This document shows, in pieces, positions 12,260 to 38,832 of a stretch of DNA of 64,000 nt (the first letter of the stretch is position 1; the number at the start of each line of letters is the position of its first letter). The notes beneath the pieces were generated by a model. It ran no database searches. It saw only the letters and a list, made by a program, of their open reading frames with translations, and was not told the DNA's origin. The DNA is from Lytechinus pictus (taxonomy: Eukaryota). A program made the position numbers and the translations under genes. The stretch covers positions 21,826,001 through 21,890,000 of the forward strand of contig NC_087250.1 in the NCBI RefSeq assembly GCF_037042905.1, given 5' to 3'.

Positions 12260-15200
12260 CTGTATGCAAAAATCAACAGTAGAATATTGTTTATCGACAC
12301 AATAAACACTCACCAATCTTAAATGACTTTCAATACCCAAAAGGTCGCAAAAAAGTGTTGGTATATTAAGTGGCTTGACAAAGGAACATCAGTCTTGTTC
12401 TGTTATACATTCATCTTCGACCGTCATTATCAGCATCATTATTATTATTAATATTATCATCACCATCCTGATCACCATCATCATCATAATCGTCAGCATT
12501 TTAATTACTTATCAGTGATTTTATCGACAATTATCTGCAGTTAGGACTTGACGTCTTGCACTTCTACTAACGGACGAGATCTAATAAGTACATCCACTAT
12601 TAGATGTGTAAATGAAAATGCTCTAACTGAATCTGGCGGTTCTTACCAGAAAATGAAGATCCGAGAAAAGTTCCGACTCCCAACACAATCTCATACGAGG
12701 CTAGTATAACTGGAAAGTGTGAACGATGAGCCCTCTCTTTACAAATCACCAATAGGAGAACGTTCCTCTCGGCAATCGTCAGTGACGTAATGAATGACGT
12801 CACAATCATCACAGCAAGTTCAGGAACAAAGGTATCTACAAGAAGCGATATGATGTTGAGTAAAGTTAGGAAAAGAAATAAGCATTTGCCATTGAATAGT
12901 TTGGAACCAATAAGCATTCCACTGGAACAACGGCCGATAAAGGCTGCAGTAGCCACTGAGTAAGCAATGTATAACGCCCTGGATGTAGGTTTCCCGATCA
13001 ATGCCACTGCACGTGGGATGAGGAAGGAGTACCAACCACCATTTAGAATGGCGTACACCAGACCAAGGAACATCAGAAGGACCATCATACGATCTTGATT
13101 GTAGATGGAGTCCTTGATGATTCGGCATCCAGTGGCGTAAAGCTCGGAACAAATCGATTGACCTTTTTTGCAACGCCCTTTTCCACTATGCACATTATTC
13201 ATGTTCGAAACGTCTTCATCCCGTTTACCAGTGGATGACCCCAGTATTAAAGCTGTATCTTCGCTTGCCTCTGCACTGAATTCCCCAAGCGGGACGCCCT
13301 CTACGTTGAGACCCACCATCAAGGCCAAAGGTATAAGGTGTGCCATGATGCCTGCGATGATCAATAAAGACCCTCTCCAGCCATATATTCCCATCAGGTA
13401 GTCAGCAAGTAGAGGGACAAGGGCCATCCCGAAGGCATATCCTGATTTGCCAATTCCGTAAAAGATCCCGAAGGCTTCACCAGATTGATTGCTCAAGGTG
13501 ATAACGAGCGAGATCGACAGAATGTTGGCACCGAGTCCTGCAAGAGACAAATATATACAATAACGTGACGTTATTTCTTTAATCCCTACTCAGGCAGCGA
13601 ATGGGATCTGATAATGGGCTTATTTCCGATTGGTATAATTCCAATTCGTCTAATTCCCAACTCGTCTACTATTATTTGTTCTACCATCGGTTCGTCCACT
13701 ATTTACATGGTCCGAATGCCATTTCGTTTACTCATCATTTCGTCTAATAACCAGTTTCTCCGATAGCCATTTAGTCTAATTGGACTAAGTCTTCATTGGG
13801 GGAAATGAATGGAAAATGGGTATTATACCTACTGGTTTATAAAACGAAATGGTCATAGACGAACTGGTGATTAGACGAAATGATGTTTATATGACCAAAA
13901 TGGTCGATAGATGAAATGTTGATGGGCGGAATGGCACTAGAACAAATGAAAGTAGACCACGTGATTAGTGGACGAGTTGGCAATATACGAATCGGCAGTT
14001 TACCGCTTTACCAGATGATGTCCCAATTATTGTTTGAAGAAAAGAGAAATAGGACTTGTATTAGGTTAAGTCTCTTTTCTGAAGTTGTTAATTTAGTACA
14101 TTCAGTATGTTTATGAAACATGGACCAGTAATCGTTTATCATTTACAAATTTAAATTGTTCTTGTACCACGACCCCTTTTGTTGGAATAAAGTGCTAGAC
14201 TGTACATACCAAATAAAAAAATTTGCTCACTGGATCGTCTTTTAAACGTAATTGTAGTATAATTTTTTTTCTCTGCATGGATATCAATAGAATGTATATA
14301 AACGGCTTTCTCAAAGACAAATATTGGATTATCTGTTTGTTTTTATTTTTCTTGATCTTTTTCTTCTAATTAAAAACTCAATAAGTTAATTATTTTGGGA
14401 CCAGCGTGTGATAAGCCCTTGGCATTTTCTAGTTCCCTCATACCCTCACTTATTATGTTCTTTCTATTGTGTGAATGTTGAAATTTTTATTTCTAAATTT
14501 GTTCGTAAATTTCGTATGTATTGATATTATTTATTGAAACTAATTAAACTTAAAATAATTGAATAAAATAAATAATGGAATAATCTGTTTATTTTCATCG
14601 TCGTCACCATCATCGCCATTACCACCAGGTGACACGACATTTGCTCCTGCGATTATTGCTTAATTCCGTCTAAGATGTAGGGTAGGGGTTAGGGTTGCAA
14701 TAGGGTTTCATTTAATAGCTTTAGGGTTAGGTTTGGGGTAGATTATAGTGTTAAACCCAGGGTTGAAGTTGGTCATTCGATTTATGTGTGAAATTTAGAG
14801 CGAAGCAGTTGTTACCGGAGCAAATATCATAGAACCAACCATCACCACTACATGTCATCACCACCTATGATATTTTTTTACAACATTATAATAATGATAT
14901 ACTTTATTGCTATCATTGAAACATTCCATACCGGCGACAGAAAGACACAGGCCTAATTGAACGCAGTTGGTAATTAACGATGCGAGCAAGAGCCCCGTTG
15001 TTGCTAACATTGCACCAGCCATCACGAGACACCTTCGAAATCCGCCGCGGAGTCTTTGGTAAAGGTATTCTACCATTGGTCCTGTGAAATACAATGATTG
15101 TATTTTAGATTTAAACAGTTAATGATTTGAATGATAGTTATGGAAAGAGTATAGAGTGGCTGATTAGTATCAGCAGAAGCACCAGTAACATGCAACAATA

Positions 15201-17860: not shown

Positions 17861-20800
17861 TAAAGATATATATATATATACATCCGATTTTGATAAAATT
17901 CTCAGCACTATGCTTGTATGATTTTGTTTTCTTTATTGATTCAAATCAACATTTTTCCGATGTTGACTTGATCTTTCATGAGTTGTTTGTTCGGCAAAAA
18001 TTTGCTTTAAATTGAAATTGAAATTGAAACTTTATTTACCACAATCTTCATAAAAAACATACAAATCAAGAAGTATAAATATATCAATAAAATACATTAT
18101 AACACAAGTGAGTATATTTAAGAATAGTGGGAGGATCACTGAAAACTTACAAAGAACTTGTAAATTAGTGATCCTGAAATTAACACAAAACAACACAATT
18201 GAAAAACAAATGCAGTGAGAAAATACAGAACAAACACACACAACATGTATACAATTGTATCTATATCAGTATTACTTTTAGTATTAGACTTTCTGCATGA
18301 AATGTATTTTTAAATGTCTTTTAAAGCTTTAAAGGGTTTTGCACTGCTTGATATTTTGAGGGAACTTATTCCAAATAATAGGACCCCTACATAAAAATAT
18401 GTTGTTTGAGAAAGAATAATGACCATTATATTGCACGAGCATCAGCTGAATTTCTAGTATTATATGTACATATATATACTGATTTATATAGCGCAGAAAC
18501 TATGTGCATATATTCTACTGAGCTGCAATTAAGAGCTGGTGAAATGCTTGAGAACAAATTTAGAAAAGGGGGTAAAGAAATGTATGGGAATTATTTGAAC
18601 AGATAGGTTTTTAGTTTAAGTTTGAACATTTCTACTGATGGACAGGATCTTATTACATACGGCAAAGCATTCCATAATTTTGGGGCTACACAGGCACAAG
18701 CACGATCTCCCAAAGTTATCTTTGTATTATGAGTGGGGATATGAAGGAGCAAATTATCATGAGAACTGCGCAGGTTAATTGTGAGAGTGTCTGTGAGCTT
18801 TTCTTTGTAAAAGCTCCGAAATATAACTGGGGGCTTGGCCACTTAGTGCCTTGTATACGATTAACAAAATCTTGAGAGATATTCGTTGGCGAACTGGAAG
18901 CCAGTGCAGATCTTTTAAGACAGGGGTGATCCTTGAAAATCTAGATTGACTACAAATCAGCCGTGCACATGCGTTCTGTACTCGCTGAAGACGCCCAATT
19001 TGAGACGAGGGGAGCCCATACAGCAAACTGTTACGATAATCTACCTTACTAATAATGCATGCATGGACAATTGTTTTCATGCTTTCATTGTCAAAGTATT
19101 TTCGTATACGTCTGAGGTTGTATATCATATGAAATGAAGATTTACACACATTGGTAATATGTGCTTCCATATTCAATTGCGAGTCAAAAAATACTCCAAG
19201 ATTTCATACATTAGAATCTGGTTCTATGACTGAACTGCCAACTGATATCCCGTCAAAATCTAGCTTATTCAGTTGTTTAGATGTGCCGGTAACTAGCAAT
19301 TCTGTTTTACTGTCATTTAGCATAAGTTTGTTATGCAACATCCATTCATGTATGTACCCAACACAATCTTCTAGAAGAGAGATGCTCTGCTGCTGAGCAA
19401 GCAAGTCTGACGTAAAAGACAGATAGACCTGTGTGTCATCTGCGTAGCAGTGACAAGATACTTGAGGAAATATACTATGTATATTTGTAATGAGATGACT
19501 TGTGTATAAAGTGAACAGTAGAGGGCCGAGACGGGACCCTTGCGGGACTCCGAAAGGTACTGGGAAAATTTCAGAAACAGTTTCATCAATTTGGATCCGC
19601 TGACATCTGTCAGTTAAATATGATTCTATCCAGTCAAGTACTACACCCTTAATACCAAAGTATTTGTTTAGTGCATGCAATAGGTTAGTATGATCTAATA
19701 AGATCTAATAAAAGTAATAAGGTGACTTTCTTATCATCCATAGCCATGAGAATATCACTCTTAATTCTTAACAGTGTGGTTTCAGTACTGTGATACTGTC
19801 TGTAGGCTGACTGATTAATTGGAAGAAGAGAGTTGCGGTCAAGGTGATTCATTATTTGCGTATATGCAGCACCTTCCACGAGCTTCGATACATACTTCAG
19901 ATTACTTACAGGCCGAAGATTACAGAATTTTGTTTCCAAACAGGTTTTTTTCAGAGCGGTTTTCCATAGCGAAGGAAAATTACCAGATGACAATGAAAGA
20001 TTAATTAGAGATGTGATGGTGGGAATCAGTGTGTCCGTACACTGTAAAAGAATCTTTGTGGGCATTGGGTCCGATGCACACGAGTTTTTGCTGTACTTGG
20101 TTATCAGTTTATTAACATCATGTTCTGAAAGAAGAGTAAAGTTAATAAAGTCAGGTACATCATGGGAGGAAACCTGAAGGTAATCTATCCGTGGATTGCT
20201 ACTTGCATTCAATCTTGACTCAATATTTTCATGGATCTGTATTACTTTGTTCTGAAAAAAATTGCCTAAATCATCCACAAAGCCCTGTTTGTCAAGAATG
20301 CATGGTATTACAGGTTGCTTATTAGCAATATTCAACAGAGACTTCACAACACGAAATAACTGTTTTTGATCAACTTTGTTTTCCATAATTAAATCATTGT
20401 GATTGCGCAGTGACTTATACCTGTTCCAATCGCTCTCCGTCCTAGATTTTGACCAACGCTTTTCAGCTTTCCTTTTCTGTATTTTTGAAATCCTTACATT
20501 ATCAGTGAACCAAGGCACTTGAGTTCGCAGAACAACTTTTTTAGTTACGACAGGTGCATGTTTATCTAAGATACTATTTAGTGTAATGAGACCAATTCCT
20601 CAAGATCACAAGGTGTATGTTTGCAAAGATTACTATCAGCTATATCAAGCTTCATCGCATCAATATCAATTACTCCAAGCCTACGGAATGACATTACTTT
20701 AGAAGGCAGTGGAGGTTTGTACGGAAGCTTAGACGTGCCCCCAGAAGACAAGATGAGAAGACGAGAAAAAGAGCCAAGATGACAAGAAGACGAGGAAAGA

Positions 20801-23800
20801 AGACAAGAATACGAGATCCTCAATCTTGTCATGTCGATTTATTTAGGATGAGAAGGCGAGATGACAAGATCCATTATCTCGACATGTTGACTTATTTTGG
20901 ATGAGAAGATGAGAAGACAAGATCATCAATCTCGTCAAGTCGACTTATTTAGGATGAGAAGGCGAGATGACAAGATCCATTATCTCGACATGTCGACTTA
21001 TTTAGGATGAGAAGGCGAGATGACAAGATCCATTATCTCGACATGTCGACTTATTTAGGATGAGAAGGCGAGATGACAAGATTCATTATCTCGACATGTG
21101 GACTTATTTAGGATGAGAAGATGAGAAGACAAGATCATCAATCTCGTCAAGTCGACTTCGTCAGGACGAGAAGGTAAGAAGACAAGATCCTCAATCTCGT
21201 CAAGTCGACTTATTTAGGATGAGAAGACAAGAAGACAAGATCCTCAATCTCGTCAAGTCGACTTATTTAGGATGAGAAGACAAGAAGACAAGATCCTCAA
21301 TCTCGTCAAGTCGACATGTTTAGGACAAGAAGATAAGAAAACAAGATACAGAATCTCATCAAGTCGACTTATTTAGGATGTGAAGATGAGAAGACAAGAT
21401 CCTCAATCTCGTCAAGTCAACTTATTAAGGATGCGAAGATGAGAAGACAAGATCATCGCGCTGGAGTTATCGACCAATAACGCCCGACCAATAAGGATTT
21501 TGAAGATAGCGGACTATAAATCATTATATTTTGCGTACAGTGTCTACAAAAGCACGAACTGAAATTGAAATTATATTAAAAGATATCAATTATCTATTGA
21601 AGTTAAAACTAAAAAACTTATAAACATCTATTAACCATTAGTAATAATATAAGAATAATAAAACTCTCAGTGCAGATTGGTGGTTGCGGGAGCGAGCCAG
21701 ATTAGGGGCGCGCATGGATGACAACGTAACAAAAAATGTGATTTTCCTTTTTTTTTAATCTTTATATGCCCACAATGCAAAAACAAGGATAAAAAACACC
21801 TAGAACATGGCCCATCAGTTGGAGTAAATAGTGTGTGTGTTTGGATGGGGGATGTGACAGACACAAATTTTGTTCTCTTCGGTGAATGAGGATTTTTTTT
21901 GGGGGGGGCTAGTTGTTGTTTTTTTGCAGGCGTAACCGTTAGTCAAAAATAATTATGGGTCATGGAGGGGGGGGGGTGGCAAATATGGCATAAAAGACAA
22001 ATTCTATTAATAAAAAATTGAAACTACGGGAACATCAGCCTCATCACCCACTTTAGTTTGTTGCACAAGGGCGTAAATACGGGGGATTCATGATCCGCCC
22101 ATGCCGTTCTGTTTGTTTCTGTTTGTTTGGCATATAAATACCCCCCTCACTTTTTAAGACAGGAACGATATTTTTTAATCATAAACTGATTAATATAGGC
22201 CACTGCCGTTAATTCGTGGATTCGTATGTTAATGCATTTTGGGTGCTTCGGTCGCTAGGCTCATTCGCTTAATCTATATAATATATTCTTATTGGATTTC
22301 GCGATGATAAATCCCAATGTTAAGCTCATGCACTGGCAGATCAAGGGGGGCACATCCCTATAGTTGGAATATTCTTTTAAAAATAGATATTGCCCTTTTC
22401 CCTGATAAATTTCACGTGCTGCAACACCGGGTCTAACTCTTATTGTTGCAATTAGAAAACTAAATCTAAGACCCCCTTAATCATGAAAATTAATTAGCGG
22501 AAATCTACGGCAAAATTCAATATTTTTCTTCAAAATAAAATATCGAGAGACATACCGCCATTTCGCCCAGTGAAGGTCCCATGCTGGAATCAGAGGTAAA
22601 AATGGCAATTAATGGCCATTATTACCTCTGCCATTTTTACCTTTGCCATCTTTACCTTTGCCCGTTTTTACCTCTGCATTATAAAAAAATTAACATTGTT
22701 AACACAAGGCGTAACGATCAATAACATTTTATGAACATTTATATTCTTTATCACCAGTTTTATTATGATCATCGTTTTGGATTATCATGATCATCATATT
22801 TATTTTTATTACCAGCAGAAGCTCTTATTAAAAATGACATCCCCTCCCAGTGACGTACCGTGGGTCACGACATTGGGGGGGGGGGGGACCAGCAAAATTC
22901 TTGAGTCACTTAGTGAGCGCGCGAAGCTCGCTCAGTTGTCAGGTATACTGACCTAATAGAGACATTTTAAGGAAGCACTTGTTGTCATTGTAATCATGAA
23001 TAATATTTGCATCTCAGCAATCAAATAATGCGAGCGCGAAGCGCGAGCTGAAATTTTTTGATATTCAGACCTAAAAAGGGACTTTATAATCGATTTTTTG
23101 TGATCATGATACGTACCTGTTTCGCTAAACAATGCGAGCGCGATGCGCGAGCCGAAATTTTTTGTATACATTGATCCCAAACAGGGATATCTTAAGGACT
23201 ATATTTTAGGAATCTCTTAATAGTATACATATCGCACCAAAGTCATCTAATGCGAGTGCCAAGCGCTTGCTGATTTTGTTAGAATTACATCTGAACACAT
23301 GAAGCACTTTTTGTAGTCAATGTAATCATGATTATCATACGCATCTCACTAATCAAATATTGCGAGCGCGAAGCGTGAAAATTTAGATAATTCAGACCTG
23401 AAGCGGGGCAGTCTAAGGCTTGTTTGTAAGAATTCACTAAGACCATTCGTATTTCACTAACCAAATGATGCGAGCGCGAAGCGCTAGCTGATTTTTTTTG
23501 GATATTTAGATCAGAAAAAGGGACATTTCAAGGACTGATTTTAGGAATTCATGGAGAGCAGACATATCTCACCAATCCACTGAAGCGAACGTAATCACGG
23601 ACAGGAAATGTTTAATATTAAAACCTTAACATGGGGCAATCACTTTAAGTAGTCATGAAAAAGAACCATATGTCACTACATAAAACAATAATATATTTGG
23701 TGTATATTGACTTGAAAACAGGAGGTTTTCGTACAACAGGTTTATATATCTCTTTAAACAGACAATGCGAGCACCAGGAACAATGAAGATATGGACCCTG

Positions 23801-26800
23801 AGCAAATTATGTTTCATAAAGTTATGATAAAAATGTTTCCTATGTAAAATAACATAACATGATCATAATACAATATACAATTATAATGAATAATAATTTC
23901 TTCTTTCCCACTACGTTCCTCTTCCTTTCTCCCTCTTTTTCTCCTTTTCCCCGTTTTTTTTTTGGGTCAGCCGATGGGGGGGGGGGGGGGGGGGGGGACA
24001 CGTGCCCCCCATGCCCCCCTGTAGTTACGCCGTCCCCTCTAATACAAATCCTATTTTATAGAGGTTACTCACACGCGACCAACACACTTAATCCCCTGCA
24101 TCTTTAAACCATTTGCTTGGGGTGCAATTGCTCAGATAAAATCGAAATTAAGCGTATGCTTGATCCGACCGCTTATTCTTAATGCAATACATGTTTGGAA
24201 ACAAAACAAACATGTCTCACCGTTCGTTATTTTATTATTTCATAATATCATGTTATCTTGTAAGGACAACACCTTTCTTTTTATCAAAATGAATTAATTT
24301 CATTTTCGGAAATACGCACCCTATTTAATTTTCGGATTAACGAACCTTATTTCGTTTTCAGACTAACACACCTTCGGATTAATGAACCTTATTTCGTTTT
24401 TCGACTAACGAACCTACGGAATTGCGAACCTCATTTCAATTTCGGATTAACGAACCTTCGGAATAACGGAGCTTCGGAATTACGAATGTATGCAAAATCT
24501 ACGACCCAATCCTGGAAATAGGCGAAAATCGCAAAATCAAGCCAAAATTAATATTTTTCTTTGATCGAAATAAAACATATCGAATGACACATATTGGGAA
24601 TAGTGATTGGCGTTTTCTAAAAGCCCAGATATTCCCCTTTCACCTGCCGTAGGTCCCATGCTGGAACACTCGAACTAACTCTTAATGTATACAAACGATT
24701 CTATGACCCATTCCAGGAAATAGGCGAAAATCGCAAAATCCCGCCAAAATTAATCTTTTTCTTTGATCGAAATAAAACATATCGAATGACATATATTGGG
24801 AATAGTGATTGGCGTTTCCTGAAAGCCCAGATTTTCCCCTTTCACCTGTCGTAGGTTCCATGCTGGGCTTTCAGAAAACGTCAATCACTATTCCCAATAT
24901 ATGTCATTCGATATGTTTTATTTCGATCAAAGAAAAAGATAAATTTTGGCGGGATTTTGCGATTTTCGCCTATTTCCTGGAAGGTGTCGTAGATTCAATC
25001 GTAAACAATAAGAGTTAGATTGAGTGTTCCAGCATGGGACCTATACTAAGTGAAAGGACAGTATCTGCGCTTTTAGAAAACGCCAATCACTATTCCAAAT
25101 ATATGTCATTCGGTATGTTTTATTTCGATCAAAGAAAAATATTAATTTTGGCTTGATTTTGCGATTTTCGCCTATTTCCAGGATTGGGTCATAGATTTTG
25201 CATACATTCGTAATTCCGAAGCTCCGTTATTCCGTAGGTTCGTTATTCCTAAGGTTCGTTAATCCGAAATCGAAATGAGGTTCGCTATTCCGTTGGTTCG
25301 TTAGTCGAAAAACGAAATAAGGTTCATTAATCCGAAGGTGTGTTAGTCTGAAAACGAAATAAGGTTCGTTAATCCGAAAATTAAATAGGGTGCGTATTTC
25401 CGAAAATGAAATTAATTCATTTTGATAAAAAGAAAGGTGATGTCCTTACAAGATAACATGATATTATGAAATAATAAAATAACGAACGATGAGACATGTT
25501 TGTTTTGTTTCCAAACATGTATTGCATTAAGAATAAGCGGTCGGATCAAGCATACGCTTAATTTCGATTTTATCTGAGCAATTGCACCCCAAGCAAATGG
25601 TTTAAAGATGCAGGGGATTAAGTGTGTTGGTCGCGTGCGAGTAACCTCTATAAAATAGGATTTGTATTGGAGAGGACGGCGTAACTACAGGGGGGCATGG
25701 GGGGCACGTGCCCCCCCCCCCCCATCGGCTGACCCCAAAAAACGGGGAAAAGGAGAAAAAGAGGGAGAAAAGAAGAGGAACGTAGTGGGAAAGAAGAAAT
25801 TATTATTCATTATAATTGTATATTGTATTATGGTCATGTTATGTTATTTTACATAGGAAACATTTTTATCATATAACTTTATGAAACATAATTTGCTCAG
25901 GGTCCATATCTTCATTGTTCCTGGTGCTCGCATTGTCTGTTTAAAGAGATATATAAACCTGTTGTACGAAAACCTCCTGTTTTCAAGTCAATATACACCA
26001 AATATATTATTGTTTTATATAGTGACATATGGTTCTTTTTCATGACTACTTAAAGTGATTGCCCCATGTTAAGGTCTTAATATAAAACATTTCCTGTCCG
26101 TGATTACGTTCGCTTCAGTGGATTGGTGAGATATGTCTGCTCTCCATGAATTCCTAAAATCAGTCCTTGAAATGTCCCTTTTTCTGATCTAAATATCCAA
26201 AAAAATTCAGCTAGCGCTTCGCGCTCGCATCATTTGGTTAGTGAAATACGAATGGTCTTAGTGAATTCTTACAAACAAGCCTTAGACTGCCCCGCTTCAG
26301 GTCTGAATTATCTAAATTTTCACGCTTCGCGCTCGCAATATTTGATTAGTGAGATGCGTATGATAATCATGATTACTTTGACTACAAAAAGTGCTTCATG
26401 TGTTCAGATGTAATTTTAACAAAATCAGCAAGTGCTTGGCACTCGCATTACATGACTATAGTGAGATATGTATACTCCTTTAAAAAAAAATCCTGTTTTG
26501 TGTCAATATAAACACAAATTTCAGCTCGTGCTTCGCTCTCGCATCATTTTGTTATTGAAATACGTATGGTTTTGCGAATTCCTACAAACAATCCTTAAAT
26601 TGCCTCTCTTCGTGTTTGAAATTCCTGATTTTTTAGCTCGCGCTTCGCGCTCGCAATATTTGATTAGTGAGATGCCTATGTTATTCATGATTACAATGAC
26701 TACAAGTGTTTCATATGTGTTTAAATGTAATTCTAACAAAATCAGCAAGCGCTTGGCACTCGCATTAGATGACTTTGGTGAGATATGTATACTATTAAGA

Positions 26801-29800
26801 GATTCCTAAAATATAGTCCTTAAGATCTCCCTGTTTGGGATCAATGTATACAAAAATTTTCGGCTCGCGCATCGCGCTCGCATTGTTTAGCGAAACAGGT
26901 ACGTATCATGATCACAAAAATTCGATTATAAAGTTCCTTTTTAGGTCTGAATATCAAATATTTTCAGCTCGCGCTTCGCGCTCGCATTATTTGATTGCTG
27001 AGATGCGAATATTATTCATGATTACAATGACAACAAGTGCTTCCTTAAAATGTCTCTATTAGGTCAGTATACCTGACAACTGAGCGCGCTTCGCGCGCTC
27101 ACTAAGTGACTCAAGAATTTTGCTGGTGCCCCCCCCCCCAATGTCGTGACCCACGGTACGCCACTGGGAGGGGATGTCAGCTTCTGCTGGTAATAAAAAT
27201 AAATATGATGATCATGATAATCCAAAACGATGATCATAATAAAACTGGTGATAAAGAATATAAATGTTCATAAAATGTTATTGATAGTTACGCCTTGTGT
27301 TAACAATGTTAATCTTTTTCTAATAATGGCAGAGGTAAAAACGGGCAAAGGTAATGATGGCAAAGGTAAAAATGGCAGAGGTAATAATGGCCATTAATTG
27401 CCATTTTTATCTCTGCCATTTTTACCTCTGATTCCAGCATGGGACCTTCACTGGGCGAAATGGCGGTATGTCTCTCGATATTTTATTTTGAAGAAAAATA
27501 TTGAATTTTGCCGTAGATTTCCGCTAATTATTTTTCATGATTAAGGGGGTCTTAGATTTAGTTTTCTAATTGCAACAATAAGAGTTAGACCCGGTGTTGC
27601 AGCACGTGAAATTTATCATGGAAAAGGGCAATATCTATTTTTAAAAGAATATTCCACAATAGGGATGTGCCCCCCCCCCTTGATCTGCCAGTGCATGAAT
27701 TTAACATTGGGATATATTATATAGATTAAGCGAATGAGCCTAGCGACCGAAGCACTCCAAATGCATTAACAGACGAATCCACGAATTAACGGCAGTAGCC
27801 TATATTAATCAGTTTATGATTAAAAAATATCGTTCCTGTCTTAAAAAGTGAGGGGGGTATTTATATGCCAAACAAACAGAAACAAACAGAACGGCATGGG
27901 CGGATCATGAATCCCCCCGTATTTACGCCCTTGTGCAACAAACTAAAGTGGGTGATGAGGCTGATGTTCCCGTAGTTTCAATTTTTTGCTCTCTTGCATT
28001 TATTAATAGAATTTGTCTTTTATGCCATATTTGCCACCCCCCCCCTCCGTGACCCATAATTATTTTTTACTGACGGTTACGCCTGCAAAAAAACAACAAC
28101 TAGCCCCCCCCAAAAAAAAATCCTCATTCACTGAAGAGAACAAAATTTGTGTCTGTCACATCCCCCATCCAAACACACACACTATTTACTCCAACTGATG
28201 GGCCATGTTCTATGTGTTTTTTATCCTTGTTTTTGCATTGTGGGCATATAAAGATTTAAAAAAAGGAAAATCACCTTTTTTGTTACGTTGTCATCCATGC
28301 GCGCCCCTAATCTGGCTCGCTCCCGCAACCACCAATCTGCACTGAGAGTTTTATTATTCTTATATTATTACTAATGGTTAATAGATGTTTATAAGTTTTT
28401 AGTTTTAACTTCAATAGATAATTGATATCTTTTAATATAATTTCAATTTCAGTTCGTGCTTTTGTAGACACTGTACGCAAAATATAATGATTTATAGTCC
28501 GCTATCTTCAAAATCCTTATTGGTCGGGCGTTATTGGTCGATAACTCCAGCGCGATGATCTTGTCTTCTCATCTTCGCATCCTTAATAAGTTGACTTGAC
28601 GAGATTGAGGATCTTGACTTCTCATCTTCACATCCTAAATAATTCGACTTGATGAGATTCTGTATCTTGTTTTCTTATCTTCTTGTCCTAAACATGTCGA
28701 CTTGACGAGATTGAGGATCTTGTCTTCTTGTCTTCTCATCCTAAATAAGTCGACTTGACGAGATTGAGGATCTTGTCTTCTTATCTTCTCGTCCTGACGA
28801 AGTCGACTTGACGAGATTGATGATCTTGTCTTCTCATCTTCTCATCCTAAATAAGTCCACATGTCGAGATAATGAATCTTGTCATCTCGCCTTCTCATCC
28901 TAAATAAGTCGACATGTCGAGATAATGGATCTTGTCATCTCGCCTTCTCATTCTAAATAAGTCGACATGTCGAGATAATGGATCTTGTCATCTCGCCTTC
29001 TCATCCTAAATAAGTCGACTTGACGAGATTGATGATCTTGTCTTCTCATCTTCTCATCCAAAATAAGTCAACATGTCGAGATAATGGATCTTGTCATCTC
29101 GCCTTCTCATCCTAAATAAATCGACATGACAAGATTGAGGATCTCGTATTCTTGTCTTCTTTCCTCGTCTTCTTGTCATCTTGGCTCTTTTTCTCGTCTT
29201 CTCATCTTGTCTTCTGGGGGCACGTCTAAGCTTCCGTAGGTTTGTATAAGTTAAGAGTGCACATAACAGGAATATGATCACACAAAAGAGAACTGTGTGG
29301 CCAAGGTTTGCCAACTATAATTTCATCTGACTGTCGATGAATCATCAATCATCGATGAGTCAAGGGCAAAGACCTTATATATTACTAGACCGAAAGCTGC
29401 GTGCGCGTTCAGCACAAAACAAATGAGATTAGGCTCCGCCTACCGCGATCATTTGAAGACAAAAATAAGCCCTCATTGACATTCATGAGCATGAAGATAT
29501 TCATAATCCGGCCTTTTCATTGGCTAGGAGCGTCATTAATACGCGATTTCCCCGATTCTTTGTCATCGATACTAGTGGTATCGTGTTACAGAATTAAGTA
29601 TTCATTTGACCTCATTACGTCATCTAATTTATTCATTCAGAAACTTTTCTTTCCACACAAAAATGGACCTACGAACACTCCGGTGAGTACGTATAAATTG
29701 ATATAACCACATTAATTCAGTGGACTATTTACATATTTCACACTGTATTTTGTGATCTTAGGTTATTTCTTTAACTAATTAGAGAGTTTGCTATCATTCT

Positions 29801-32800
29801 TCTGTTAAAGAAAAGCAGAATTTGGTCTTTTAAATTGAAGTTAGATTGTCATCGTCGCCCGGCCCAGTGCAGCCTGTATGTTGCTTTTCAGTGGTTATGC
29901 CGCTGTGTCAACCACATGTATTTTGTACGGGCTCCTAGCCGGCTGGGCATCGAGAGAAAATCGGGCCGGGAGCCCATGATTGATTAAAACAAGAAGAATG
30001 AAGCTTCTTTTTGTACACTGTATAACGTATAGATCTAGAGGGAGATCTGCATCTATCTTCAGTAGATCGAGACTCAGTCAGGAATAAACTGTGAAGCGGA
30101 GTGTGGAAGAAGATATGCCTGTCATCATTGTGTCAATCCTCACTAGATTCTCGTCAGTTTCAGATATCAAATTTATTTTGCATAACTTCAGGCTTCTTCT
30201 GCATTTACCCCCCCCCCACCCATTTTAATTCTTATTGTTATTTATAATATATAGTTAGACTCGGTATACTATTAGAAATAACATGCTGCTCTGCATGTTT
30301 GTCTTACTCTTATTATCAATAGATCAAGATCTAATTTCTAACATGGTTAACAGAGCCTAGTCTTGCCTCTTAATTTTACTTCATCAGTTTATGTTATTTT
30401 TATCCATCGATGCTTGTAGTTGTACGTAGATCTAGGCCTACCTAATTAAAATCTAGTCATCTAACTTTTACTTTCCCAACCCTCGACACGTACCCCCAGG
30501 GCTTAGGATCTAGGTCTATAATTTTAGGCCTAGATGTAGGTCTGGGCCTAAACGACTACATTTACATATGTACGAGTATGACTGTTAGTGGACCAAGGAG
30601 ATCTATAGATCTACTCTCGGTCAATAATGGCAATGAAGGTTAAATCAGACATCAAAAATTTCTAAATCGATATACCGGTAGGCCTACATCTAGGTAAAGT
30701 CATCGAAGGGTTAGCTTTACATTCTAGGTCTAGCTAGATAGATCGAGAGTCTATCGATAGTCTAGATCTAGACCTTATTTAGATACATGAATGCTGTCAC
30801 GAAGCACTGATTCTGGTTGGACTAGATCTATACTTTTTTACAAATAGATCTAGACCTAGTGCATGAGATTATGAAATTATGTTGTTAAAATCAAATGAAT
30901 TAAGATTCGGAATTAAAAGATGCAGATTTTTTTTTTTTGGGGGGGGGGGGCAGACATGTGAAAAATTTAGAGAAACCTGAAATTCAGAAAGCGAGGGCCC
31001 GAAGCAACCAATATTGCCTAACTTTTTTTAGGGCTGTTTTTTGCATTTTCTAAATTGGATTTCATGCAATTCTTTTTTTTATGAAGGTTTTCACATTTCA
31101 GCTCCCACCCAAACCCCTCCCCCTACAGTGTTAGAAAATTAATCCTTAAAATAAAAGAAGTTCCTGCAGCAGAGTCTCGAGAACACCTGTAATTTTACCA
31201 GCTAGATTGCATAATCTTACATCATATCATGTAAAATTACAGGAAATTCGTATTTGGTGTATGGAACCTTACAAATTTCCTTAAATAAAACACCATTTTC
31301 CCCTTTTTAAACAGACCTGTTCTGTAGAAAAATTCCTGTTTTATGAATTTACAGAATGATTGTTATTGCTTTCTGCAAAATCTTGTTTTTTTTCTGTAAA
31401 ATCAGTTTTTTTTTTAACAGTGTACATACGGCCATGAAAGAGATCACTTGACACTTATTGTTCTCTCTTTTCTTTCACAAACAGGTTGAGTTTGAAGAAC
31501 AAGAAAAACAGTAGAGGTCTACCCGGTACCTATGGTTAAACATGATGATCATAAGTGCATGCATCATTTTGCAGATTCTCATCCAGGTATAAAAGTTATA
31601 CTAACCCATACAAAATTACAGATACATTACATGCATTGAAATGAATGTTAACCATGTTTACATTAAATAAAAATAACCTGAGCAACTGCTAAGAGGTAGG
31701 ATCTATACTGAATATACACTTCTTATATATACAGGCTCTCGACTCTCTCGAGTCTAAAATAGAACCAATGCCAAAAGTTATGTACCTTGTTCAAATTTAT
31801 AAAATAAGGTCATGTCCTTGATCTACTATTATTTAAATGGCCTTTTTATTTCCTATTTGTTTATAAACAAAGCAATATTTATTTTTCATGTTTTATATTT
31901 TATAAAATTCATTTTATTCATTCTTTAGTGTGATATTCATATTTCATATTTGTAGATTTACAATCTTTTTTAAATCTTATTATTTTACATTTTGTCCAAT
32001 AGGATGATGCAGCTCTACAATTTCCATGGAGGTGATTGATGATGATAAACATTTGGTGAAGTAGGCCTAATAGAACAGTGATAGGACCACAAAGAGAAAT
32101 ACAACCTACAGCAGTTATATGAGTGAGTTAATTAGTGATTATTTGTAATAATGGGGGGTTTTCACAATTTTTTAGGCAACAAATAGACCTGCCTTTGAAA
32201 AAACCATTTCAATTCTGTGTTTAGATTATAGTTAGGTGTCGTTTTTATTCGCAGATAAAAATATTCTGTGCAACAAAACATATCAACTTTAATTCTGACT
32301 ATTATATATAATTTATATATGTTAATTCATATATTCATATTTATAGGAAATCTCTGACTTTTTTTTTTATAGAGTACATGTAGTTATAATGGAGAGTGGT
32401 ATGTAAACTGCATAGAACAGGTTTAAGTGATATGCTTTGTAGAAGTACAAGTTTATAATTAGTAGAAGTAAGATTTCCTATGTTATGTGATGAAGAAATA
32501 TATATACCGGTATGTATAGTCTTACTTTTCTTAAAACATTTATGTTTTACAAATCATGACAATTTTAATTTAAATTCATTGATTTTCTTTCTATATTTTT
32601 TCAATCTGCAGGACTGGTGTAACAGATGTTTTCATTCCAGAAATCCAACAAATTGAAGAGTGACTTAGCTTAGGAAGCACTTGATAAAGATGGAAAAGGT
32701 TTTTTTTTTCAAGTCAAATTTTTTTAATATTATTATCACAACCCCAAATTCATGAAGTATGAAATTTCCTGTTGATTTTCATTAAAACTGATTGCAAAAG

Positions 32801-35800
32801 GAGAAGCTATAAACATACAAATAGGAGCGGCGAAGTGAAGTTGAAAGTGGGGGGGGGGGGAACAGGGAAAATGCTGTATTATGTGAAATTTTTAAGAAGT
32901 TGCGAGAGAGCAAAATTTTGACATTTTAAAAAAGAAAATCCAATTTTGTGATAGATTTCGACAAAATATTCAGAATGATATATTTCACCCTTTTTTTGGG
33001 GGGGGGGGGGCAAGAGTCCTTCAAGCCCCCCCCCCTCCATCTGTAGTGTACGAAACTGCTTATCTACCCCCACTCACATGAATTATTAAACTTAATGCAC
33101 AAAGGATTTCCTTATTGTTTTCTTGTTTCAAAGGGCACTCGTCATGGTGACCATAAAACGGGTCCTCAGGTGAAAGGGGCACAGAACAAGTTCTTGAGGA
33201 GCACTTTTCTTTGGTAAAAGGGGGCAGTCATTCGAGAAAGCTAGGGCACTTACAAGAAGGCGAGGGGGCACTTTTTAACACATAAAACGCGCCCTCAGAT
33301 GAAAGGGCACAAAACACGTTCGGGGGGGCATTTTTTGGTAAAAATTTGCATACAAGGAAGAGCACTTGGTAACACCTAAAACAGGTTCTCGTCAGGTGAA
33401 AGGGACACAGTACACGTTCGTGAGGGGGCATTTTTCTTACATAAATTAAAGGCACTTTTCAGTGCTTCAAAAAGTAGGGGGAACTATGCCCCCCAGGATC
33501 GCTGCCCCTGCATACAAAAAACATTTTCGTTCGATCCAAAGTGTTAACATACGCTTAAGAAAAAAAGTAAGGCTAAATCCTCTGATAATGTGATATTTTT
33601 TCTGGCTATTAATAAAATTCACAACTAACCAGAAAATGCCTTCATGTCTTTCATTTGTATTCATATAGTATTTGTACAGAGCTAAAATGAAAGGGATTTG
33701 GAATTGGCAAAATTCAAAATGAGATGGAGATCGAGAGAAAGAGTGATGAGAAGGGGGTTGAAAAGAGATGAGAAAGAAATGGAGGGGCACATATGAAGAG
33801 ATAATTTAGAGGGGGAGGGGTAAGAGAGCATGAATGGTGGAAAGTAGGAACAAAGGGGTGGAAGAGAAATAAGATGAGATTTATGGAAACCAGGAGACAG
33901 ATAACAAGTGGGAAAAGAAGAAGGAAATATATGTAGGAGAAGGGCGGCACCAAAAGAACGTGAGTGGGAAAATTATTAAATGGAAAAACAGAGCAAGAAA
34001 TGCTGGAGAATAAAGGGGACAGGAAACGTATTAAACATAATAAACTGGGGCCCGTTTCATCATGAGTTACAAGTATGGTAATTATGATTGGTTATAGCCG
34101 TTACCATCGTAGGTAACTACGATGGTAACTGCTATAACCAATCATAATCTAGGTTACCACGGTAATCACAATAACAGCGATGTTTAAATAGCTGTAATTC
34201 ATTATGAAACGGACGCCAGATGAAGAAAACAGGCACGGGGATCCATGAGGGGGCCGGCCCCTTACGTATTATACCTTGAACAAAAGATTTTTTTTTTGCT
34301 TCTCGAAATTTGTAACAAGAAATGTACTCTATTAGTGGTGACAGTTATTTTTTTCAGTAACCATACTCAACCAGTGAAAATTACCATCAAATTGTAATAA
34401 CCATGTTCTGCCCCCACCCGCCCCCCCCCCCTAGAAAAAAAAGAAAACAAGACTTTTGGGTCAGTGCAACAGCCCCCTTTGATCCGTTCGGCGGCCTCTG
34501 CCGGCTATTTAGAGTCTAGTTTCAATTCAATTATTTTATTTTCCACTTTCAATTTCATATTTACAATTATGATACAATTGACAAAGTAACATATAATCAC
34601 ATTTGAAGTACATACAAAAATTGACAACATTATAAAATTACAATAGACAATTATCAAATCGAAATATAAATAATTGAAAGGGATGGAGGGCCAACTGAAA
34701 AGCAGAGTTTGCAATGTAGGCCCCCCTAATATTGATTAATTAATATTGATTCTTTACATTTGTTAAAAACTAAGATTGCTGTATATCTTAACATGTGACA
34801 ATTTGGGAATGGCAAAAGCAATGGAGACCTCTTTACCTAATCAAGACTTGATCTACTCTTTTCATCTTCCCTTTTAGAATTAGCATAGGCCTATAAGACG
34901 CAATACAAACAATGCTTTGTTTTTGAGTGATATCGCTTGTGATATCGATACTTTATAGAGCGCAACGTATCGTCTCAGATTTGCGCTTGCTTGATTCGCT
35001 GAATCCTTCGCGTCACGAGCGCGTAACAAAATGAATACATTAATGAATTTGCCAAGTTGACCTTTGTCATTGCGCTGATGTGCGTATTGTCTGATACACG
35101 TACAAAACCACAGTTAACGAGGGAGCATCGTACGAAATTAATATTAATGAGGGCTTATTTTAGCTTCTAATGGATTAAACAAAATGGCGGTAGCTTCGGG
35201 GGCTTGGTCAAGGGTATGACCATGAATATGTGTACTAAAATCAACCAGTTGTGTGCAAAAAAGAGACTCGAGCAGATCCGAAAAAGATCTTGCCTCTGCT
35301 TTGACAGTATCCACATGGATATTAAAATCTCCAACAATGAGCAATGGGAGATTAGACAACAAATGACATTGGATGTAATCATTAAACTTAGATATGAATG
35401 ATATAACTGTTACAGGATGAGATTCGGAGTATGGCGGTCTGTAAATATTAATCAATTGCATATTAAATGACTGATATGAGACAAGATATTCAGCGAATTA
35501 TTACCAGCAGCTGCCATACGGACATCAATTGTATGTATGTATATGTTATATGTATGTATATCTCTATTGGCGATTGGTTTGAAAAATGTTGTCAAAATTA
35601 TTAGGCAAAAGGTTGTTATAATAGGAATACATAAAAACAGATAATTGAAAATCATGTAGTAAAGAAATTGGGAATATATTTAATTTTAAGAAAAGAGGTC
35701 TGCTATGACTTAAATCTTCAGTTATTGTTATAGCAAATGGATAAGAAGATTAAAATTCGTTTTAGGCGAATTATTCTTTGTCTTTGAGTGTGGTCACCAA

Positions 35801-38800
35801 TAAAATTTTACAAAAATCTTCATGATGATCATGGGTCTTGCTTTAAACGAAAAATCAGAGTTCAGTTTTCCTTATTCTTTGAAATCCTCACTAAATTTGG
35901 AATGTTAAAGGCTTGTTGGGGGAGTTTCATTATATTGTAAATACAATTTATTGTTTTCAACCAACAAGCAAATAAGATCGCATTGAATACCTGATAAGTA
36001 AAAAAAAAAATCTAGGAACTAGCAGGATATGAACCTCTCATCTATACACAACAAAAAAAGTAACTCCCCCCTAAATTAAATTGCTGTAACTTTTGAACGG
36101 AATTATTTTGAGACATGATATTCCGTAGGTGGTTTTCTACACTCATTAAGCAACTCCTGGGGAAAAATAAGATTGATCGGTCATGCATGAGTAATTAAAG
36201 ATTGAATTAAAAATAACCATTTTTGAAAGTCACAAGAGTCGTTTTTCAGATTGTGCAAATACAAAGTTGGGCAAATGTTGTCTTTATGTGAATTTTATGG
36301 TGTTATGCTGTTTTACTATCCATCATTTAGCCACTCCACACACAATTTTGATATATGTTCATGGTTGAGTGAGCACAATGTATTGCAGGGGCCGCGGAAG
36401 CGGGGGGGGGGGCGGGGTGGGGAGCTTCAGCCCCCCCACTTTTTTCCAAAAGCATGTACAAAAATGTAAAAATGACCATACGATTGTGATTTTTTGCATG
36501 GTCAGCCCCCCCCCCCCCCACTTTGAAAACCCTTCCCCGGCCCCTGTATTGTGACGTATCATCATAGGGGTTTATATATCCTCTACAACTTGTAAGATAA
36601 TGTTAAAATTTGAAAATGTTGGTGGCTCCCCCGATTATAGGCCCCTCCCCCATTTTCAAATTCTGGACCCACCACTGATTTGTCCATAAATTAAACTGAT
36701 CATGAGATATTGTTAGGAAAATAATATTTATGCAGTATAAAGAGTATTCATTCCTAAGTTTTCGAATGTGCTCGCTCAACCATGAAAATGTTTAAAGTTC
36801 GGAAAGTGTGTGGTGATAGAAATGATGGATGATAAAAACAATAGCAATTATAGTCTTATTTGAAACCGAATTTGCCCCAAATATTCACTTTATTACCCTT
36901 AAAATGAGTCTGTGACATTGAAAATACAAATTTTTACACTTTGATGCGTGCTCACTCATCCATAAATAAACAAATCGATTTCATTTTTACACAGAATTCT
37001 GCCCATAGGTTGATAAATATTACTGCCAAATGACATTGCTAAAGACAGCCGTGAAAAAAAGTTCCACCATATTGAATAAGGGGTTACTTATTCTTAAACA
37101 TGTGCACCCATAATGTACACAAGTCTATGAGAGACGAAGTCAAAATTTTAACAAATATGAAATGAGGGTTTGTTTCATGGACGGTTTTGTTACTTCTGCC
37201 AATAGTTATTTCATGAAACTTCGTACATGGCTTCAGAGTAACACTATCCAAAAGGCGCGCACACCAAAATAACCATTCGATACGACACAGAGTGGGGCCA
37301 AGGCCTTGAACTTTCTTCTCATTTGCATAATTTTCGAATATTGTGTGCTCACTGATGCATTAAACTTCGGGATTTTCATAAAAATCAAATCAAATGAACT
37401 ATGCAAGGATGTTTGTGACAGATATCCATAGTAACAAATTGCATTTTTTCCAATAACGTACAAAAGAGCTAATCACATTCCACATGTTCATTCAAGCGTG
37501 GATATTTAATTAACGCCTTTGAATCATTGAAGCATGTTAATTGGTCATGAACATAACGAAAAAGTTGAGAAAAGATCATTTTCAGTTCCCAAAATGAACC
37601 AATACTTGCCTATGATATTTGAAAATCGTATTTTTTGTTTTCATTAAATGTTCATTGAACCGTGAAACGATGAATATTGTTGAAGAAACTCTTCCAAAAA
37701 TAACTGTCATCATATTCTATCATTTTTATTGATATGAATGTGTAAAAAATCCAATTATAGCAAATTTGGACTTGTGTTAATTCAACCGTGAAATTTAGCC
37801 AAAAAAGTTGTATCGTCTTTTAAAGAGTACCTTTTACAAGCCTTCTGACTATTTTGTATGATGAGAATGTGGAATTAGTTCCAATAAAATGGAATCAAAG
37901 TCATGATATTTGGCTTGTGACTTTTGAAAAGTGACATTTTTGCCTTCTGACGGTGCTCACTGAAGCATGAAGTGAAATACGTCCATTACGTTTACTCAGA
38001 GGGTATAGCTTATAAAATTACCTGTACGATCATATAAAAATATATGAAAAACTCGCATTGGTTCGGAAATTATTGATGTTTGTTTAAGGGGGGACTTACT
38101 TTTTTTGTTGTGTATATTTATTGCCAGTCAGCAACTGTACAACTTATTTTTTTTCTACCTACAATCGAGCAGTCATTTGGGTTATTGGTGATTAATTTTG
38201 ACAATGTACATATTATTTCAAGTTCAATAAAAGTCTCAAAATTTATTTTTGCTATTTTTGGACGATTTACGGTTAGTTTTGACGTGGAAGGTAGGATAAT
38301 TTCTATCATGCAACACACTAAAAACAAAATTGAACCAGAAATGAAACACTTTTACCAACCTCTTGAGGCAAAATTTTGGACCCTCATTGGAAAAGGGTGC
38401 CAAAATAGACCTTGTTTGTTTGCATTCTAAAAGATGCAACTTTTCATCTTTTAAAGTGCAAAAGATTCAAAATTTGAACTTTTATCACATGGTTCATCGC
38501 TGTACCCTATAGGGTACTTTATATAATGGAAGTGTACCCTTATATGTGTACAAATGAGCACAATTGCACTCAATAGCACCCCCTTTAGGGTGCTGCTATT
38601 GTACCAACCCCAAGGGTTCGAATTTGAACCTCTACTACTTTCCCACTTACCAGGTCCATGGGCAAAGGCATTGGACAAACCAAGCGAGATTCCTATACCA
38701 GTTGAGGTGAGTCCTAAGTCCCGTTCTAGGAGCGGTAGATAGACTCCGATAGACTTGATAGTTCCTAAGACATAGCAAGTCTGCAGGAATAAGGCCAGAG

Positions 38801-38832
38801 TCCAAGTGTCGGAAGGTCGAACAAGTCGCCAT
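12129..38832 (-). CDS. SLC16 / monocarboxylate-transporter-like MFS gene: join(~38832-38651,15081-14932,13537-12647,12259-12129), about 450 aa, with an apparent frameshift near the start
   Basis: Multi-transmembrane hydrophobic exons with MCT-like motifs (LGTIKSIGVYLPLL, GMALVPLLADYLMGIYGWRGSLLI, GFIADVSGTFNASF); three GT-AG phase-1 introns; TGA at 12131-12129. Confidence 0.85.
12647..13537 (-). CDS. MCT-like exon 3 (large exon spanning the central loop and several TM segments)
   Basis: TTGCAG acceptor, G|GTAAGA donor, 891 nt; ORF-track entry 12600..13550. Confidence 0.92.
14637..14829. mobile_element. Small MITE with a GGGTTAGGGTT-rich core
   Basis: GACATTTGCTCC / GGAGCAAATATC inverted ends. 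Confidence 0.55.
14932..15081 (-). CDS. MCT-like exon 2 (GPMVEYLYQRL...LGLCLSVA)
   Basis: TTTCACAG acceptor, G|GTATGG donor, 150 nt. Confidence 0.88.
15848..17548. mobile_element. ~1.7-kb non-autonomous TIR element (Harbinger-like) with mixed direct and inverted subterminal repeats
   Basis: GCCCTTTCACACG...CGTGTGAAAAGGCCC ends; direct repeat 15849-15933 / 17308-17393; inverted repeat 15995-16028 / 17176-17210. Confidence 0.55.
17819..17880. repeat. (TA)n microsatellite
   Basis: Direct inspection. Confidence 0.9.
18006..18420 (-). mobile_element. 3' remnant of a second CR1-like LINE with a (TTTCAA)n tail
   Basis: Minus-strand GPIIWNKFPQNIKQCKTL*SFKRHLK and a TTGAAA repeat at 18010-18030. 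Confidence 0.6.
18470..20720 (-). mobile_element. Decayed CR1/L2-type LINE, ORF2 reverse transcriptase and 3' end (fragment 1 of 3)
   Basis: Frameshifted ORFs with PWF, QSAYR..HSTET, GVPQGS.LGP.LF, YADDTQ, LNDSKTE, LHWLPV and APKLWNALP motifs; 3' GCGCTATATAAAT near 18490. Confidence 0.93.
20790..21456 (+). repeat. 53-bp tandem array (~12 copies), outer domain of the left foldback arm
   Basis: Unit GACTTATTTAGGATGAGAAGGCGAGATGACAAGATCCATTATCTCGACATGTC; starts at 20942, 20995, 21048 etc. Confidence 0.9.
22848..24032 (+). mobile_element. hAT-like non-autonomous element nested in the left foldback arm
   Basis: CAGTG(A/G)CGTA...TACGCC(-)G ends, 8-bp TSD TCCCCTCC/TCCCCTCT, many GCGAGCGCGAAGCGC motifs. 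Confidence 0.75.
25677..27166 (-). mobile_element. Mirror copy of the nested hAT-like element in the right arm, ~305 bp longer
   Basis: TSD GGAGAGGA/GGAGGGGA; extra internal repeat unit at ~26455-26770. Confidence 0.75.
28556..29170 (-). repeat. 53-bp tandem array (~11 copies), outer domain of the right foldback arm
   Basis: Reverse complement of the left array, one unit fewer. Confidence 0.88.
29238..29366 (-). mobile_element. Middle fragment of the same LINE (end of the APE endonuclease: LMIHRQSDEIIVGKPWPHSSLLCDHIPVMCTLNLYKP)
   Basis: Reads in frame into PLPSKVMSFRRL at 20712 once 20721-29245 is removed; CDH corresponds to the SDH motif. Confidence 0.88.
29367..35206. mobile_element. 5.8-kb non-autonomous DNA transposon, P-element-like
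   Basis: GTCAAGGG duplicated at 29359-29366 and 35207-35214; CAA...TTG ends; subterminal inverted repeat AAAATAAGCCCTCATT (29462-29477 / 35146-35161); interrupts the LINE. Confidence 0.8.
34048..34216. mobile_element. Harbinger-like MITE nested in the P-like element
   Basis: CTG|GGGCCCGTTTCAT...ATGAAACGGACGC|CAG. Confidence 0.6.
35207..35465 (-). mobile_element. 5' fragment of the same LINE (APE endonuclease: IYRPP...GDFNIH...THIHGHTLD), 5'-truncated
   Basis: ORF 35144..35461; homology stops exactly at the GTCAAGGG duplication. Confidence 0.9.
36047..38112. mobile_element. ~2.07-kb non-autonomous TIR element flanked by TA, with a nested small MITE at ~36386-36546
   Basis: ~30-bp TIRs CACAACAAAAAAAGTAA.TCCCCCC.TAAA / TTTAAGGGGGGACTTACTTTTTTTGTTGTG. 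Confidence 0.75.
38651..38832 (-). CDS. MCT-like exon 1 (TM1-TM2: LALFLQTCYVLGTIKSIGVYLPLLERDLGL...AFAHGP)
   Basis: G|GTAAGT donor at 38650; start position uncertain because the ATG at 38832 is out of frame. Confidence 0.7.

Follow-up and report, generated by a model that had tools for sequence, protein, structure and literature searches.

How does a palindrome with arms of about 4 kb and a centre of 32 bp come to lie in an animal intron, what moved it, and how did its two arms become so alike? The question is raised by a locus of Lytechinus pictus (RefSeq assembly GCF_037042905.1, contig NC_087250.1), of which a stretch of 64,000 nucleotides was analysed (21,826,001 to 21,890,000 of the forward strand). 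This whole stretch is called the window, and positions are counted from its first letter. Positions 20720-29238 hold an element of 8,519 bp without coding capacity, which runs from TACGG to CCGTA and has a 6-bp duplication, GGTTTG, outside its ends. We consider it probable that this is a multi-copy, gene-less DNA element, likely moved by a transposase of the IS3EU/GingerRoot type encoded elsewhere, with arms that were likely equalised by copying and a middle that was likely deleted.

Ends, insertion site and class

Comparison of the window with itself, a check proposed in an earlier sequence-only reading of this DNA, gave a single long inverted repeat from about 20720 to about 29238. Two readings of the borders fit this copy when it is taken alone. 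In the first, the 6-bp duplication GGTTTG occupies 20714-20719 and 29239-29244 (both + strand) and the element ends at 20720 and 29238. In the second, an 8-bp duplication, AGGTTTGT, surrounds an element that ends at 20721 and 29237 (ACGG…CCGT). The chance probability at the local base composition is about 4e-4 for a 6-bp direct match and about 1.7e-3 for TAYGG. Other copies bear on the choice. Window positions 20200-20830 were compared with two DNA runs, X1 and X6, which contain at most 0.18 of the words of the stretch and may come from another individual or species; 61 contigs of X1 and 104 of X6 aligned. Loose ends fall exactly before 20720 in at least 9 contigs of X1 and at least 8 of X6, and the flanks of these contigs are taken to be unrelated because they agree at only 0.48 (X1) and 0.54 (X6). 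Since both ends of one element count separately, this amounts to at least about five elements per run. In the metagenome contig L011 a flank ending in acaaa is followed directly by TACGG…, and its terminus is identical to the one described here at 76 of 78 positions. The 6-bp duplication with T at 20720 is favoured because other copies keep the T of TACGG next to unrelated flanks. The sequence-only reading had set the block at 20713-29245, with arms from 20721 to 29237, and had named the 6-bp version as an equal alternative. The junctions in other copies speak for that alternative and against the 8-bp version, and the ends are corrected to 20720 and 29238.

The 8-bp version would make the element a foldback of the TU/FB/Mutator type (or of the hAT type) with ACGG ends. 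It fits the element exactly, and the modular build, together with a different inner domain in L011, recalls the TU elements of sea urchins. Most foldbacks are thought to be of the Mutator type with 8-10-bp duplications (PMC4079207), and the duplications of Tm1 are mostly 9 bp (PMC3169594). Such a duplication clashes with the junctions of other copies, since T at 20720 is retained in L011 and in at least 17 contigs of the two runs, next to a flank that varies; moreover, TAYGG, with its low chance probability, is published as an IS3EU end (PMC12730594). We therefore hold a Mutator-type origin to be very unlikely. An earlier grouping with FB and TU elements that have 8-9-bp duplications is contradicted by the T-start of other copies and by the 6-bp duplication.

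Deleting the element together with one copy of the duplication restores one reading frame of a long interspersed nuclear element (LINE), CDHIPVMCTLNLYKP joined to PLPSKVMSFRRLG, and the claim of a single insertion is thereby confirmed. Three contigs of run X6 pass from the left flank directly into sequence like the right flank and are candidates for the empty site; they may be other LINE copies. Outside the element, the window contains neither a further terminus of this kind nor paired TAYGG…CCRTA ends flanked by a 6-bp duplication.

Judged by the signatures of its ends and duplication, the element is a non-autonomous one of the IS3EU type, encoding no transposase. It is filed there because TAYGG…CCRTA ends with 6-bp duplications are published features of IS3EU/GingerRoot elements. 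IS3EU elements have TA…TA ends and duplications that are usually 6 bp long (PMC10045372), and fungal IS3EU families have TAYGG..CCRTA ends with a 6-bp duplication (PMC12730594). GingerRoot elements are described with 6-bp duplications and repeats of 100-150 bp, and 72 of 77 copies end in TA…TA (PMC6839031). The present element shares with these the TA…TA termini, the 6-bp duplication (at one two-sided site) and terminal inverted repeats longer than 30 bp (286 bp perfect), and its size lies inside the 3.9-12.9 kb of GingerRoot. It differs in that the GingerRoot repeats surround genes, whereas the repeats here are about 4.1-4.4 kb long, modular and arranged around 32 bp. The integrase-like DDE transposase gene of autonomous members is absent, as judged from the open reading frames (ORFs) and a Pfam scan. 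Mobilisation in trans by an unidentified transposase had been suggested earlier; movement in trans is retained as an inference, and the class of the enzyme can now be named as IS3EU-type, although the partner was not found.

Pattern scans with the terminus gave 10 matches in viral_contigs and 7 in genome_contigs, all attributable to chance (9-17 of 45 bases beyond the seed and 6-20 of 43 bases, respectively), and one match in metagenome_contigs, the partial, gene-less contig L011, which is genuine. The core of the 53-bp array found in the arms had no match in viral_contigs. A degenerate version of the terminus had a sole match in viral_contigs (L019), which was rejected: it lies in a phage-like gene of 53.5% G+C and has no similarity to the window.

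Descent from a Polinton/Maverick element is another way to account for a 6-bp duplication. Polinton ends are AG…CT, those of the element are TA…TA, and the Pfam scan gave no remnant of a Polinton gene. An expansion of inverted repeats is mentioned for Polintons (PMC3573991). Even so, a Polinton derivative is extremely improbable.

Foldbacks, arm extension and gene-less two-arm copies are already known, mostly with 7-10-bp duplications (PMC4079207, PMC3573991, PMC3169594). If the IS3EU reading is true, the foldback architecture, in print mainly a matter of Mutator and P elements, reaches the IS3EU/GingerRoot superfamily. No IS3EU foldback was found in the published literature searched, a search whose scope did not extend to Repbase, subscription journals and supplements. 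It has been proposed that foldbacks arise independently in many lineages through loss of the transposase and elongation of the arms (PMC4079207), and an IS3EU-type foldback would support that proposal.

Arms, modules and probable arm-to-arm copying

A global alignment of the left arm (20720-24830) with the reverse complement of the right arm (24863-29238) matches in 3,924 of 4,002 columns (98.05%), and the paired fraction is 92% of the bases of the element. The palindrome with a 32-bp spacer at 24831-24862, as first described, is thus upheld. Substitutions separate the arms at 78 positions, and there are 19 indel blocks. In the two largest blocks the left arm has one more 53-bp unit than the right, and the right arm has a further unit of 317 bp (26416-26732) that the left lacks. 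Roughly half of the 19 indels sit in homopolymers, where sequencing error may account for them. The outermost 286 bp form a perfect inverted repeat. Mismatches are spread homogeneously over five outer segments (0/78, 4/607, 20/1,349, 19/1,162 and 8/460; chi-square p 0.35). Together the outer columns mismatch at 51 of 3,656 (1.4%), compared with 27 of 346 (7.8%) in the inner part (Fisher p 8e-11). Divergence in these inner 346 bp, which consist of 202-bp units, is 5-6 times that outside, and the differences cluster at 24625-24710. The description of the palindrome as almost perfect therefore suits the outer 3.66 kb and fails for the inner 346 bp.

These differences also bear on whether the palindrome exists at all. 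Fold-back long reads could in principle create such a structure in an assembly, and the indels in homopolymers would agree with that. Likewise, none of the records listed for the runs aligned to 20200-20830 bridges LINE and element. The arms are nevertheless distinguished by 78 substituted positions and by indels as long as 317 bp, the differing flanks continue one LINE frame and carry the duplication, and the terminus is present with other flanks in independent data. We give an assembly artefact hardly any credence and agree with the original view that the insertion is real.

The arms are built of modules; features of the left arm are given on the + strand and those of the right arm on the - strand. 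The terminal 78 bp (left, 20720-20797; right, 29161-29238) are identical in the two arms and carry A20750 and C20774. They are followed by an outer domain made of a 53-bp array, with 12.4 copies in the left arm (20798-21457; array 20798-21454) and 11.4 in the right (28557-29160). The left outer domain is rich in the word GAYRAGA, which also occurs in the terminal 78 bp, and in the palindrome GTCGAC. The density of GAYRAGA is 51-56 per kb in terminus and array, zero in the remaining 3,409 bp of the arm and 0.5 per kb in window positions 1-20719. Terminus and array are likely the putative binding sites of a transposase. We infer that the transposase recognises this part, and that the inner domains travel as passengers that can be exchanged.

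Contig L011 has the common terminus and the 53-bp array and then continues into unrelated sequence, in which no convincing likeness to the window was found (best E 0.012 over 22 bp). With its terminus next to other flanks in X1, X6 and L011, the element belongs to a modular, multi-copy family, as the sequence-only reading had supposed. At the end of the contig (positions 1980-2123) the inner domain of L011 turns into tandem units of about 42 bp. A related subfamily with a terminus that starts TACGGAAGCTTAAAAG is seen in three contigs of each of X1 and X6, at window position 20756.

Sea-urchin TU foldbacks combine a common tandem outer domain with variable inner domains, and the element and L011 show the same pattern. 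The TU elements of Strongylocentrotus purpuratus, reportedly the subject of work by Liebermann in 1983 and Hoffman-Liebermann in 1985, are said to have an 8-bp duplication, arms of about 840 bp, a 15-bp outer repeat and a middle segment. Set against this description, the outer period of 53 bp and the duplication of 6 bp distinguish the present element from TU.

Inner domain A of the left arm (21458-22847), absent from L011, combines unique sequence with 15-bp repeats (22615-22677) and, at about 22460-22590, a diverged version of the 202-bp unit. Inner domain B (24033-24484) contains 16-bp/42-bp repeats (24297-24486). It is followed by the 202-bp units L1 and L2 (24485-24866), the second of which continues through the centre. 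Their counterparts in the right arm, the truncated R2 and R1, lie at 24863-25208 and account for the 27 mismatches in 346 columns. All the repeats named in the earlier description of a modular build (53-bp, 15-bp, 16-bp and an inner repeat, here 202 bp) were thus recovered. The third, diverged copy of the 202-bp unit at 22460-22590, with its mirror at 27430-27560, is about 80-87% alike over 86-102 aligned bases. Given this copy, an older array of 202-bp units may have been there first and may have received the 15-bp repeats, the nested element described next and the 16-bp repeats as later insertions.

An element which we take to be hAT-like is nested in each arm. Its left copy (22848-24032, + strand, 1,185 bp) starts with CAGTG…, has a damaged end, TACGCCG, and is bordered by an 8-bp duplication, TCCCCTCC / TCCCCTCT. 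The right copy (25677-27166, - strand, 1,490 bp) lies at the same site, with the same damaged end and the duplication TCCCCTCC / TCCTCTCC. In each arm TCCCCTCC stands before the nested element and a copy matching at 7 of 8 positions after it, and the TACGCCG end is three bases short of the mirror image of the start. The extra 317-bp unit at 26416-26732 belongs to the right copy and is 80% like the neighbouring unit. What had been called a nested miniature inverted-repeat transposable element is thus present in both arms as proposed, at sizes of 1,185 and 1,490 bp.

One insertion and one lesion therefore appear twice in mirror image, and for this reason it is likely that, after the nested insertion, one arm served as template for the other. 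Other details of the arms can be set beside this. Over the first 448 bases the arms are identical to each other at 447 positions, and they agree with L011, in register, at 388. The variants of the 53-bp unit stand in the same order in both arms. At 20774 both arms carry C, in contrast to T in all the depth that covers this site (21 contigs of X1, 13 contigs of X6, and L011), and both have A20750, where G makes up 1,192 of 1,239 depth in X1 and 482 of 543 in X6. The step in mismatch density agrees with copying of a tract of about 3.7 kb, ending short of an older centre. In gene-less copies of Galileo, copying of one end over the other has been proposed as a means of arm extension (PMC3573991). 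With its nested insertion present in mirror image and its abrupt change in divergence, this locus is an unusually clear record of arm copying over about 3.7 kb, and one that can be measured across copies.

The unpaired centre (24831-24862, 32 bp) is a continuation of unit L2 and contains no foreign middle domain. The bases CTGG at 24863-24866 are common to both arms, and the right 202-bp unit is truncated there. A central deletion is read from this junction because the centre continues L2 and CTGG overlaps both arms; the centre is a remnant of the inner repeat, such as a deletion between repeat units would leave.

The same junction can be explained within the same IS3EU-type family by a head-to-head join of two left halves in one step, through snap-back synthesis or alternative transposition between sister chromatids. 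The even divergence across the outer 3.66 kb, the 4-base overlap at the centre with no foreign middle, and the mirroring of the whole arm content, nested element included, all agree with such a join. Snap-back synthesis, however, predicts even likeness up to the centre, and divergence rises 5-6 fold in the inner 346 bp. The join could be rescued if the halves came from different copies or if the tandem units were reshuffled later. We regard a one-step join, the chief competitor of arm copying, as unlikely.

The history that we prefer, copying between arms together with a central deletion, would run as follows. A transposase acting in trans would bind the terminal 78 bp and the 53-bp array, with GAYRAGA as their common word, and make a cut with a 6-bp stagger. 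Other mobile elements would have landed in one arm of an ancestor. Repair or conversion that began in the outer repeat, with the other arm as template, would then have copied about 3.7 kb together with these passengers and stopped about 350 bp before the centre. A deletion between 202-bp units at the CTGG overlap would have taken out the original middle. The copy would persist because its 92%-alike inner ends, its 32-bp centre and scattered indels limit the formation of a hairpin or cruciform in DNA, and a long hairpin in the host pre-mRNA would be a predicted by-product.

Several points weigh against this history. A two-sided duplication is known at one site only, the other copies giving one-sided junctions, and the listed loose ends leave room for some copies that begin at 20721. 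The two terminal variants could be subfamily markers instead of traces of copying within the element, and the even 1.4% divergence of the outer arms suits a single joining event equally well. Copies with a longer middle did not turn up, and the only sign of a central deletion is the junction itself; the palindrome may have moved in its present form or been shaped after insertion. The scans of viral_contigs, genome_contigs and metagenome_contigs did not give an autonomous element with these ends.

Palindrome stability, RNA and related foldbacks

According to one review, the risk of instability rises as the arms of an inverted repeat become longer, more alike and less widely spaced (PMC7999016). 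Inverted Alu repeats in eukaryotic cells stalled replication forks with a 12-bp spacer and not with a 52-bp spacer (PMC7999016). A 32-bp centre flanked by sequence that is 92% alike may thus be tolerable in DNA. The sequence-only reading had stressed the instability of multi-kb palindromes that have almost no spacer; the puzzle is weaker than it had seemed, as the inner 346 bp have only 92% identity between the arms and are separated by the 32-bp centre. The persistence in an animal intron of a palindrome with arms of about 4 kb and such a centre offers a natural test of palindrome tolerance.

The longest ATG-initiated frame of the element is 113 codons. We scanned 31 stop-to-stop frames of at least 45 amino acids, comprising 29 of the 33 frames listed for the element and two from the right arm; none reaches the Pfam cut-off, and three give weak matches (E 0.02-0.06). 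An Rfam search of the element gave no match, and the early statement that it has no credible ORF is borne out. Perfect stems of at least 30 bp between the arms number 39 and total 3,339 bp, and the folding energy of the central 801 nucleotides is -604.8 kcal/mol (z -61 relative to 20 shuffles). A long RNA hairpin is predicted in the host pre-mRNA if the intron is transcribed, in agreement with the potential for double-stranded RNA noted before, and the element is a predicted source of more than 3 kb of perfect double-stranded RNA. In two raw RNA runs, of each of which about 6% was read, 3 and 4 reads fall on 20200-20830, too few to inform on expression or editing.

Mu killer of maize is also a transposon-derived inverted duplication, for which a hairpin RNA of about 4 kb, made by read-through from a flanking gene, has been proposed, comparable with the arms of about 4 kb in a predicted intron here; Mu killer differs in containing transposase sequence and in having been shown to silence (PMC3440606). 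Extending the comparison, IS3EU-type elements of this lineage might routinely rewrite one arm from the other during mobility, and intronic palindromes might act, as Mu killer does, as mobile 'killer' loci that silence their own and captured families through hairpin RNA. We think this rather unlikely. The element is one selfish element in a repeat-rich genome, and an effect on the host lies outside the present claims.

With the foldback class the element shares long modular inverted repeats that consist of a tandem outer domain and an inner domain. The middle domain typical of the class is represented, in this one copy, by only 32 bp derived from the inner repeat. The closest published parallels are of two kinds. 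Galileo of Drosophila (2T/2RT) has gene-less two-arm copies in which the repeats are longest, internal tandem repeats and an arm extension of the form TIR1-F1-F1-TIR2; it belongs to the P superfamily, with 7-bp duplications and arms of up to 1,260 bp, whereas the arms here are about three times longer, the duplication is 6 bp and a nested element is mirrored (PMC3573991). Tetris, FB and Tm1 have flanking, tandem outer and inner domains, no ORF and arms that differ in repeat number, as does the present element, and they are set apart by duplications of 8-10 bp, a proposed Mutator origin, a middle domain and, in Tetris, arms of up to 1,735 bp (PMC4079207, PMC3169594).

Host gene, target LINE and neighbouring insertions

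The element lies in a predicted intron of 23,569 bp (15082-38650, - strand) of an MFS gene like those for monocarboxylate transporters. Three MFS transporter exons (12647-13537, 14932-15081 and 38651-38880, all - strand) join into a stop-free frame of 423 codons with GT/AG splice sites, in support of the intronic position predicted earlier. The closest protein clusters of the gene are mostly from echinoderms. Its exons are intact, and the 23.6-kb intron is largely nested mobile DNA.

The target of the insertion is the decayed 3' part of a LINE, presumably CR1/L2-like, with a reverse-transcriptase domain (18775-20719, - strand; RVT_1, E 2.4e-15). It continues beyond the empty site at 29245-29366 (- strand), and its endonuclease part appears to resume at about 35207-35497, past a second insertion. 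The second insertion (29367-35206, 5,840 bp) has an 8-bp duplication, GTCAAGGG. Its ends, which match at 6 of 20 bases, do not form terminal inverted repeats, and it contains short exon-like pieces on the + strand. Contigs from other LINE copies have loose ends at 20398-20403 with about 30 extra bases, which points to a small deletion in the LINE of the window. Elsewhere in the window, at 6770-7795, a purine-rich unit of 343 bp is present in three tandem copies that are 98% alike.

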